A DNA stretch of 19,069 nucleotides, from the NCBI RefSeq assembly GCF_003334815.1, contig NZ_QOWO01000053.1. One strand, 5' to 3'. Shown in pieces: positions 1-3,000 of the stretch. The DNA comes from Escherichia coli (GTDB lineage Bacteria > Pseudomonadota > Gammaproteobacteria > Enterobacterales > Enterobacteriaceae). The number at the start of each line of letters is the position of its first letter. Position 1 is the first letter of the stretch. A program made the position numbers.

Positions 1-3000
1 TGCAGTTGCCATGTTTTACGGCAGTGAGAGCAGAGATAGCGCTGATGTCCGGCGGTGCTTTTGCCGTTACGCACCACCCCGTCAGTAGCTGAACAGGAGG
101 GACAGCTGATAGAAACAGAAGCCACTGGAGCACCTCAAAAACACCATCATACACTAAATCAGTAAGTTGGCAGCATCACCAGCATGATGTATTCAATTCT
201 GCTTATTATGTTTCCTGTGGTGTTATCCGCAGGCATAAACATATTATGAAGAGCATCCTCAAGCAGGATTCGGGTTAAATCAGCGGTGGATATGGCTAAT
301 TGTTCGCTCATTATCCCCAGAACTTCTCTTACCCCTTGTGGGTAACGGACCTGCAGTGGTGTCGGGTTTATCTGACGACCGTTGATGAGTTTTTCGCCGA
401 TTGCTTTTTTGTCCAGCGAGAGCATCATTCGGGCCGCAATACCGGTCGTATTCAGTCTCATTGTTCCTCCGACTGAAAAAGTCTTTTCAGCTCATGTGGT
501 TATTGTATCTTCGGTGTTTTTTCTGGTGAAACGAATAATTTCGATCATGCAGATCGAATGTGTTTGGCGAGTTGTTGCAACTCGCCTTTCTGTATGTGTT
601 TTGAATGATGCTTACAACGAGGTGCTGCCCGGGTTCAGAGGGCAAATCATAATGTAGTCAGGGGCGTCGACCGCGATATCAATGCGGCACTCAACATCCG
701 GCAAAAAGGAATACTGGAACTAAAGGCGGCGGGACTCGTCGTCTCTGCCTATGGAGGCCAGCGTAAATCCGTCGCACAGACGGTTGCGGCCTGAGAAGTG
801 GGAAGCCTCGCCCGACAGGGCGGAGAGCAGTCACTATTTGGATATCAAACTTAATTGAGCGTTACACACGACGCAATACAACCTGTCTTATGCTCGTATT
901 TGTACCATTTACGTGAACCTGCTGGGCTCTCAACTACCTGGCAGTAGTGGGCATCCTCTGCGTTGCCCATTCTGGCAATGGCACAGAAGTCGAATTGCCC
1001 CAGATAACCTGTGTTGGAAAGCTGAGTAACTTTGAGTTTTCCACCTATTGTCCTCCACGTACCGGATTGGCACGAAAGTATTGCCCCTGTATTATCGCGG
1101 CCTACAAGGCCGTTAGGCGAACATGATGCGCCAGCAACGGCAGTTCTTTCCAGTTGTAAGTATTCACCAGTATAAAGGCGACCATCAGCACGAACAGTAC
1201 CGCCTTTCACCTGACCGCCGGTATAGATGCCCTTGTTGTTTACACTTCGAACCCATGATCCGTCGGACATATAAAATCCGCCACCGTGAGTTTCATTGAG
1301 CCAGCCTTTGCTGTTACGAGTAATTAACCAACCATTATTACTTCTGATATCACCGCCAGCGGTGACATTTACGTCAAAGTTTCCGCTATTGCCTTTTACC
1401 TGACCGCTGAAAGTGCCATTTACACCATTCACATTGCCGCTGAAATTACCAGTCTGGGCATTTACTGCCCCAACGTTATTCAGGTTATTTGATCCCATAT
1501 CAATGGCCGTGTGCATTTTGTTTAAGTCAGGGCGACCATTGACCTGGAATCTGTAAAGACGATCAGTGTCCTCTGCTGCACCACTAAGTTCATCTGTCGA
1601 TAACAGTACGGCAATATGCCCGTTGCCGCTTTTGGCACCATAATTACTTAAAGCTACTGACCAGGAACGTAATGCACCTGTGGCTGTTTTGCCGTCCTGG
1701 ATATATCCACCAAGACCAGTGGTAATATCCTTAGCCATCTGGATAAGTGCTTTCACTGGATAAGGGGTGCCACCACTGGATACAACCATTGCCTGTAGTA
1801 ATTCCGGGTTTTGGGTGTTTCGAACTACATATGCCTGTAACCGCTGCCCCTCGCTGTTTGTCTCAGTAAAGCCGCTGGACAAAAAGCCGGTATTTTTCAG
1901 CATGGTTGTCGTGATAACGGCAGGGGTTGTTGTGGTACTACTGGCCTGGAGAGTTGTGTAGTTTTTCCCTATATAAGAGCGGGCTGCACTGGCCCAGTTG
2001 CTGACAAGACGAGCTTCAGCCTGCCAACCTTTGGTTTTTAAATAGTCCTGCCATATGCCTGCACCCCAGGCAACTATGATCATAACAATCAATAAAGCCG
2101 CGCCAATTTCCAGCGATGCCCAGCCTCGGTCATATTTTTTCATCAGATTACCCATAGTGGTTGATAAAGATTATCCAGTAGCAAAAGGACATGGCCAAGA
2201 CACAGCCATGGACCCAGTGGGCCTTCTTTATGTCCTTTTATGCACCATGTTGAATGCCATAAGACAAATCCTCCTGCGCCCAGCAACACACTCCATATGG
2301 CGTTATATAGCCCTGACCATGCGGTAATACCTGCAATAAGCCACAGGTCTCCTGTGCCAATATTAAGACGATGGCGGTTAACCAGTTTATGCAGACAGAA
2401 TAAGACAATTGCGGCAGAGACAATTTCTGTTGCACGGAGCCACCATATATCAGTTGTGATTTGTGATAATATTCCAGCGATTAAAAAACGCCTGGTGAAT
2501 GTACCAGGTAAGAGGCCTGTTAGTGCATCCGTTACTGCCATTTGCAGCATGAACGAAAGAATAAGAACAGCATGAATACGGTAGAGAAGTTGGGATGGCG
2601 ATAAAATAATTAATGCCACAGCTATACTATATAGCCATATTCCTGACAGAACTGCAGTGTGTGTCTTATACCAGAGATGTTCTGTATCAGATAAAAAATA
2701 ACGAACTCTGAATAACAGAGTTCGTCCAATAATGGAAAATATGAACATCAATGGGAGGATATAAACAGGGGAGAGACTTATGCCTACGATTGTCTGCATT
2801 GTCTGCCTCCCTGCCCGGGAAGGCATATCCCTTTCATGTCACGATAAATTCTCCATACTTTATTAGCATATTGCTCTCTTGTTTCATGTCTGTCCTTACG
2901 GAATCCGGCATTGTATGATCCAAGGCAATTCCAGCTGACGCCACATATCTGAAAATGTCTTGCCAGTATCCAGCTTCCTATATGGATATTAAGACATGGT

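Follow-up and report, generated by a model that had tools for sequence, protein, structure and literature searches.

The DNA analysed here comes from a conjugative IncI-type plasmid that has lost its shufflon together with the Rci recombinase and is left with a single, fixed pilus-tip adhesin. By the window we mean the whole stretch of 19,069 nucleotides of Escherichia coli DNA that was examined. It is very likely that the locus between pilV and traE is a degenerate R64-type shufflon, locked as PilVA', which is inherited as a trait of a lineage of widespread IncI-type transfer regions and which arose through the deletions reconstructed below. The IS1 element that interrupts traE in this plasmid is a later, simple insertion, unrelated to the loss of the shufflon.

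The single sfx site and the pilV isoform

The closest complete plasmid is RCS85_pI of E. coli ECOR 3 (NZ_LT985321.1, 117,804 bp), with 99.99% identity over window positions 1-16860. Positions 16861-16938 correspond to the start of the NZ_LT985321.1 record, as expected for a circular record crossing its origin; from 16939 the window runs into an IncI repZ replicon that is absent from NZ_LT985321.1, and the last 2.1 kb differ, so that the window stems from a close relative or from another assembly. All of the genes concerned lie on the minus strand, in the order pilL to pilV (11574 down to 851), the place expected for the shufflon, rci, traE and traF, and the remaining pil genes of the window are full-length ORFs. 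The features of the pilV-traE end are collected in Table 1.

Table 1. Features at the pilV-traE end of the window, in order of position
Feature	Positions	Strand	Description
IS1 end, cut by the window edge	1-180	minus	Left end; terminal inverted repeat 158-180; insA start near 125
IS1 target-site duplication, one copy	181-189		9 bp, AGCATGATG
traE, 5' portion	181-461	minus	Codons 1-94 of 274, interrupted by IS1
rci-traE intergenic spacer, native	462-611	minus	150 bp; colinear with R64 L003 7813-7962
rci remnant	612-667	minus	Last 56 bp of the 1155-bp gene (18 codons and the stop at 612-614); R64 L003 7757-7812 (blastn)
IS right-end remnant	668-834	plus	167 bp of a tnpB-only IS200/IS605-family element of about 1.33 kb
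Segment A remnant, A' end	835-1054	minus	220 bp; 98.4% identity to R64 L003 5001-5244
pilV	851-2143	minus	Starts at the annotated ATG (2143) and encodes 430 aa; locked as the A' isoform
sfx site, the sole one left	1055-1073	minus	GTGCCAATCCGGTACGTGG; 19 bp, 7-bp core and 12-bp right arm

The sfx site within pilV matches the consensus exactly and is identical to the R64 repeats at 4670 and 5225 (R64 record L003). It occupies nucleotides 1071-1089 of the pilV coding sequence (codons 357-363), has the same position as in R64 and is followed by 67 codons, the last point as a sequence-only reading of this DNA had described it. Use of an upstream ATG at 2155 as the pilV start would extend the ORF to 434 aa. 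At a tolerance of three mismatches, for which the chance expectation in the window is 0.11 sites, only one other sfx-like site was seen in the 19 kb, a weak match at 5985-6003 with three mismatches and in the same orientation. No plus-strand (inverted) partner was found in the window at the same tolerance, and the 117.8-kb NZ_LT985321.1 contains a single exact copy and no second one. Similarly, a tblastn search of the whole 117,804-bp NZ_LT985321.1 with R64 Rci returned residues 366-384 only, and beyond the IS1 element this plasmid continues with the rest of traE and then traF, with no rci or inverted repeats there. For comparison, R64 has seven sfx sites between pilV and a complete rci gene. 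Of the elements that define a functional R64-type shufflon, the sfx site at the pilV end is therefore present, and the inverted partner and rci are absent. Rci inversion needs facing sfx sites and the recombinase (PMC9045228). Neither is available here, so that PilVA' is the only form that can be expressed; the claims that partner repeats and rci are missing, and that a single PilV variant results, were thus borne out.

The identity of this variant was established by comparison with R64. The R64 record carries segment A in the opposite orientation relative to pilV, and of its 536 bp, 316 bp are missing here. In the remnant, positions 835-850 are untranslated and 851-1054 encode the C-terminal segment of PilVA'; blastn similarity to R64 on this side begins at 831/835. 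An A' isoform of R64 was built in silico by inverting segment A (536 bp, from the sfx site at L003 4670 to that at 5225). The resulting R64 PilVA' is likewise 430 aa long and differs from the window PilV by 12 substitutions, two of them after the sfx site. The isomer present in the R64 and pN441 records is the opposite one and is annotated as PilVA, and the convergent ORF on the same segment is labelled A' in pESBL (PMC4288162, Table 2). Based on this agreement between the in silico isoform and the two sets of labels, the window protein is PilVA'. It corresponds to WP_001350014.1, and the identical protein is present in pRK1 and pESI.

Anatomy of the scar and the IS1 insertion

The sequence-only reading had taken positions 181-850 for unrelated sequence, and in doing so overlooked the rci tail and the IS remnant. 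The blastn comparisons instead resolve this stretch completely into the 5' end of traE, the rci-traE spacer, the rci tail, the IS remnant and segment A. Positions 180-667 are 98.6% identical to R64 and colinear with it through the traE 5' end, the spacer and the rci tail, and the region upstream of traE is intact. A promoter-like site is predicted in the spacer (530-502) from a consensus match.

The IS remnant comprises the last 127 nt of tnpB, with its stop at 792-794, followed by 40 nt of right-end sequence whose last letters are ...GCAGTCAC. It is 96.4% identical (blastn) to an independent copy of the element (L004 3001-3167). Only the last 42 of the approximately 389 codons of an intact tnpB are kept, and there is no functional tnpB; a partial TnpB pseudogene is already present in the RefSeq annotation of pRK1. 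Copies of the element from four unrelated contexts end at the same nucleotide, corresponding to window position 834, and in other copies the sequence 5' of the left end is TTCAG, ATCAG or TTTAG. In R64, TTCAG directly precedes the base that aligns with window position 835. Since the terminus is shared by independent copies and the R64 sequence has TTCAG at this point, the junction 834|835 is a true transposition end. We infer that TTCAG in segment A was the target of the element, the left end and the target itself being deleted here. The other junction, 667|668, lies inside tnpB on one side and inside rci on the other, and therefore marks a deletion, not an end of the transposed element; the four nucleotides at this junction, GCGT, are not unambiguously assignable. 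Compared with R64, about 2.8 kb is missing (316 bp of segment A and a further 2,513 bp), including six sfx sites, segments B-D and nucleotides 1-1099 of rci. An aberrant Rci-mediated deletion between sfx sites was also considered, and was rejected as neither breakpoint lies at an sfx site.

These relics bear directly on whether the lineage ever possessed a shufflon. Some type IVb pilus loci carry a pilV homologue with no shufflon or with one invertible segment, as in the single-segment shufflons of S. Typhi and pO26-CRL125, and the window pilV might by analogy be an ancestral single-form gene. An exact sfx site, a segment A cut 16 nt past the stop codon and an rci 3' tail at its native place ahead of traE are all R64-type relics, however, and make such a primitive state extremely improbable.

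The degenerate shufflon that we favour was tentatively attributed by the sequence-only reading to a deletion mediated by IS1. As that reading had noted, positions 1-180 are an IS1 end, identifiable by its inverted repeat, and lie 670 bp from the pilV stop at 851. IS1 is known to generate adjacent deletions, and this proximity makes an IS1-mediated removal of the shufflon and rci a candidate. The window starts inside IS1 and holds one end only, and the target duplication was therefore read in NZ_LT985321.1. There, IS1 is a 768-bp, single-copy element inside traE with an annotated IS1A-family transposase. It carries its inverted repeats and is flanked on both sides by the 9-bp AGCATGATG, of which intact 274-codon traE genes of IS1-free relatives contain one copy, and its flanks are colinear with traE, all as expected of a simple insertion. 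A second IS1, for which the sequence-only reading had proposed searching the replicon, is accordingly not part of NZ_LT985321.1. The junctions 667|668 and 834|835 do not touch IS1, the former being 487 bp from the IS1 end, and the same deletion occurs at 100% identity in many plasmids that have an intact traE and no IS1. Given the intact duplication and the colinear traE on either side, an IS1-mediated deletion can be given next to no credence. The locked state itself stands, and must have another, older cause than IS1.

The traE remnant at 181-461 is 100% identical to the intact traE of NZ_CP024292.1 and 98.6% identical to that of R64. The corresponding ORF (159-461) extends six codons into IS1 before a stop, truncating TraE after residue 94. 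This IS1/traE junction was found in one record of the complete collection, that of the ECOR 3 plasmid. A different insertion, of IS1B, was seen in traE of an unrelated plasmid.

Distribution of the scar and a proposed order of events

A junction-specific query (window 600-900) against PLSDB, at an E-value of 1e-110 or below, returned 124 records. The full window-type scar is present in 97 of these, pRK1 and pESI included, with 100% cover and 98.7-100% identity, on Escherichia plasmids and on Salmonella megaplasmids of 250-290 kb. In these 97 plasmids, and in many complete E. coli genomes, the junction from pilV to traE occurs without IS1, which speaks against a role of IS1 in the deletion. The other 27 records match only from position 668 on. 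Of these, ETEC B7A pEB1, S. sonnei p5 and E. ruysiae p1 were examined. All three are mutually colinear and carry a longer form of the scar, which keeps 171 bp more: its tnpB part measures 299 bp and its rci part 93 bp, and the junction between the IS right end and segment A is the same. The orientation of segment A beside the IS remnant is the same in all 124 records. One or other scar type is found in 65 of 5,426 complete E. coli genomes, including E. coli W (pRK1) and SE11 (pSE11-1), and hosts of the module comprise E. coli, E. fergusonii, Shigella and S. Infantis. The window has the shufflon-less module of pRK1 and pESI, in which pilVA', the IS right end, the rci tail and traE follow one another with the same breakpoints.

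Shufflons are notoriously mis-assembled from short reads (PMC5430464), and an active shufflon might in principle have been collapsed by the assembler through its inverted repeats. Such a collapse would not delete rci while sparing its last 56 bp, nor would it add the right end of an IS. Moreover, 97 PLSDB records show the same structure, and 65 complete E. coli genomes have either it or the longer form; these sequences come from many different laboratories and include the finished genome of E. coli W, whose authors report no rci or shufflon. An assembly artefact has a negligible probability on these grounds.

A loss of the shufflon by deletion, starting from an IS insertion, can be reconstructed as follows. 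A tnpB-only IS200/IS605-family element would first have entered segment A in an ancestor with the A'-on orientation. Insertion is proposed to have occurred 3' of TTCAG, 16 nt past the pilVA' stop and inside the last seven or so codons of the convergent pilVA frame, which would have placed tnpB antisense to pilV. The ancestral left-end junction in segment A would be expected to read GGGGTATTTTCAG|C[AG]AAAAAC. A PLSDB search with 868 bp of tnpB joined to segment A gave no intact IS in an otherwise intact shufflon among the matches listed, below which an intermediate with less than about 650 bp of tnpB could rank, and a synthetic junction query of segment A and the IS left end gave no PLSDB record spanning the junction. 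We infer this first step from the right-end junction alone, as PLSDB yielded no intact element within an intact shufflon. In a second step, a deletion that began within tnpB may have removed the left end of the IS, the remaining 316 bp of segment A, every sfx site but one, segments B to D and about 1.06 kb of rci. What this is predicted to leave, 299 bp from the IS and 93 bp from rci, is the form found in the ETEC pEB1, S. sonnei and E. ruysiae plasmids. Either a further loss of 171 bp over this junction or an independent deletion would then have left the 167 bp of IS and 56 bp of rci seen here. The window type is thus nested within the longer type; it could have come from it through a second small deletion, or each could descend separately from a form that still had the full IS. 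The insertion of IS1 into traE, with its 9-bp duplication, would have followed much later and in this plasmid only.

Consequences and comparison with known systems

As the partner sfx sites are gone, the locked state is irreversible and reactivation in trans is precluded. From the sequence, the thin pilus would always bear the PilVA' tip adhesin, and the recipient preference in liquid mating is presumably fixed and narrower. Reviews name receptors for PilVA, PilVB' and PilVC', with none given there for PilVA'. A TnSeq analysis of pESBL, a related IncI1 plasmid, placed Rci, the whole shufflon region and TraE among the functions that transfer to E. coli K-12 does not need, and traH through trbC as well as pilR-V among those that it does (PMC4288162, Table 2). 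In pESI, pilV is transcribed and conjugation to E. coli takes place in vitro and in the mouse gut (PMC5013300); the shufflon and rci are not mentioned in that paper. With the shufflon, Rci and TraE dispensable in pESBL, and pESI conjugating with the same locked allele, the present plasmid is expected still to be conjugative. By the same analogy, the disruption of traE by IS1 is probably mild in phenotype, as transfer of the related IncI1 plasmid did not depend on traE.

The success of these plasmids raises the question of whether the locked A' state is a neutral scar or was selected, in the sense that fixation of PilVA' or the shedding of Rci aided spread, with the IS end perhaps functional as well. 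The scar-bearing module is common and is found on successful plasmids, the pilVA' ORF is spared in both deletion variants, which come within 16 nt of it, and pESI conjugates efficiently. The near-identity of all copies points instead to a single recent event, or two, with hitch-hiking thereafter. As a related plasmid can do without rci and the shufflon when it is transferred to E. coli K-12 (PMC4288162, Table 2), neutral loss is sufficient as an explanation. We consider selection unlikely.

One function that the IS end might have can be formulated from its position. The retained right end could still specify an omega-RNA whose guide is the 16 nt of 835-850, TATTTGGATATCAAAC, directed against segment A of rival IncI plasmids. 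In R64-like, shufflon-bearing IncI1 plasmids this 16-nt sequence lies directly 3' of TTCAG, the apparent TAM of the IS element, and both deletion variants, whether independent or nested, keep at least 167 nt of the IS right end. If this were true, and TnpB were supplied in trans by one of the many IS copies, 92-100% identical, that co-resident E. coli plasmids carry, segment A could be cleaved, which would amount to plasmid-versus-plasmid interference against incoming or competing shufflon-proficient IncI plasmids. No Rfam family was detected at gathering thresholds in window positions 1-2400, and the folding of the putative omega-RNA region (668-850; z = -1.54) is not distinctive. We hold this proposal to be very improbable.

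The locked, shufflon-less module is already known through pRK1, which was published as lacking rci and the repeat-flanked shufflon regions (Archer et al., PMC3032704), and is an ordinary lineage trait. The IS605-family nature of the scar, its two nested deletion forms and the sharing of the module by pESI found no description in the literature searched; these three points are modest comparative details and not a new kind of system. They are nevertheless of some practical use. The locked module resides on epidemiologically important plasmids, S. Infantis pESI in its window form and ETEC and Shigella plasmids in its variant form, and these have spread well regardless. The combination of an IS605-family right end with an rci tail provides a convenient lineage marker, and the annotation 'shufflon system PilV' does not imply an active shufflon.

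Among experimentally altered systems, an engineered rci deletion in TP114 (IncI2) resembles the window in that loss of the recombinase fixes one pilV variant and hence the recipient preference (PMC9045228). TP114 delta-rci keeps all of its segments and sfx sites, however, and can be reactivated by Rci in trans (PMC9045228), whereas in the window the partner sites are gone. The IS remnant has its counterpart in the tnpB-only IS200/IS605-family (IS1341-type) elements that are common on E. coli plasmids, with which it shares the last 167 nt at 96% identity and the exact right-end terminus; relative to the full element, 167 of about 1335 bp are retained, with no left end and no functional tnpB.

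R64 and ColIb-P9 (IncI1) represent the complete system, with pilV, seven sfx sites, segments A-D and rci. The pilV constant region of the window is approximately 96.6% identical to theirs at the nucleotide level, the 19-bp sfx site is identical and lies at the same codon, the A' C-terminus is shared, and the rci-traE spacer is the same, with traE downstream. Of what R64 has, the window keeps one sfx site out of seven, 220 bp of segment A (536 bp in R64) and 56 bp of the 1155-bp rci gene; segments B, C and D are gone altogether, and inversion is impossible. The plasmids pEB1, S. sonnei p5 and E. ruysiae p1 share with the window the join between the IS right end and segment A and the A' C-terminus, but their PilV constant region is of a diverged, 397-aa type with only about 77% nucleotide identity to R64. 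The plasmids pRK1, pSE11-1 of E. coli SE11 and pESI of S. Infantis have the scar of the window, with an identity of about 98-99% or more; for pSE11-1 the match is at the DNA level only, and for pRK1 and pESI it extends to the PilV accession. In all three of these plasmids traE is intact, whereas in the window IS1 lies inside it.

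The pilV shufflon region and related plasmids

The window holds one weak match to the 19-bp Rci site sfx, within pilQ, which lies in direct orientation relative to the real sfx site in pilV. This 19-mer is a chance-level occurrence, and recombination at it is not expected.

The PilV constant region of the Escherichia ruysiae plasmid p1 (4370-4906 of locus L009), of ETEC B7A pEB1 and of Shigella sonnei p5 is diverged and shorter, at 397 aa with approximately 77% nucleotide identity to R64. In the same three plasmids R64-type sequence is matched at 98-99% identity by the retained A' end of shufflon segment A, the IS200/IS605 remnant (IS scar), the tail of rci and traE. 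This pattern implies either that recombination had its boundary at sfx or close by, or that the pil operon was swapped.

In pEB1, the depositor labels 3774-4037 of locus L013 as an 87-codon 'shufflon-specific DNA recombinase'. This ORF is simply the rci tail reading through into the antisense tnpB remnant, making the label an annotation trap.

A separate IS1B insertion lies at a different site in traE of another E. coli plasmid (NZ_JBRBPW010000002.1, 85088-85891). Insertion of IS1 into traE may be tolerated, or may happen repeatedly.

Repeats and RNA features towards the replicon

Two direct repeat copies (96.8% identical) sit in the two intergenic regions bordering a 183-codon ORF between pilI and traC. 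Further along, between the NusG-family gene traB and traA, there is a full-length match to C4 antisense RNA, a regulator of P1/P7-phage type.

Features of the window
Feature	Position (strand)	Detail
sfx-like 19-mer	5985-6003 (-)	3 mismatches
Direct repeat, copy 1	13134-13226	93 bp
Direct repeat, copy 2	13848-13940	93 bp
C4 antisense RNA	16214-16301 (-)	Rfam RF01695, 77.5 bits
PK-repZ pseudoknot	17155-17303	IncI repZ replicon
repA ORF	17271-18347	IncI repZ replicon

Comparison with the ECOR 3 plasmid

The window matches the ECOR 3 plasmid NZ_LT985321.1 up to 16860, its next stretch (16861-16938) corresponds to the opening 78 bases of the same record, and from 16939 onward it enters an IncI repZ replicon, so the window does not come from precisely this plasmid record. 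NZ_LT985321.1 is without a replicon type in PLSDB, and the record carries a Tn21-like transposon where the window has the IncI repZ replicon.
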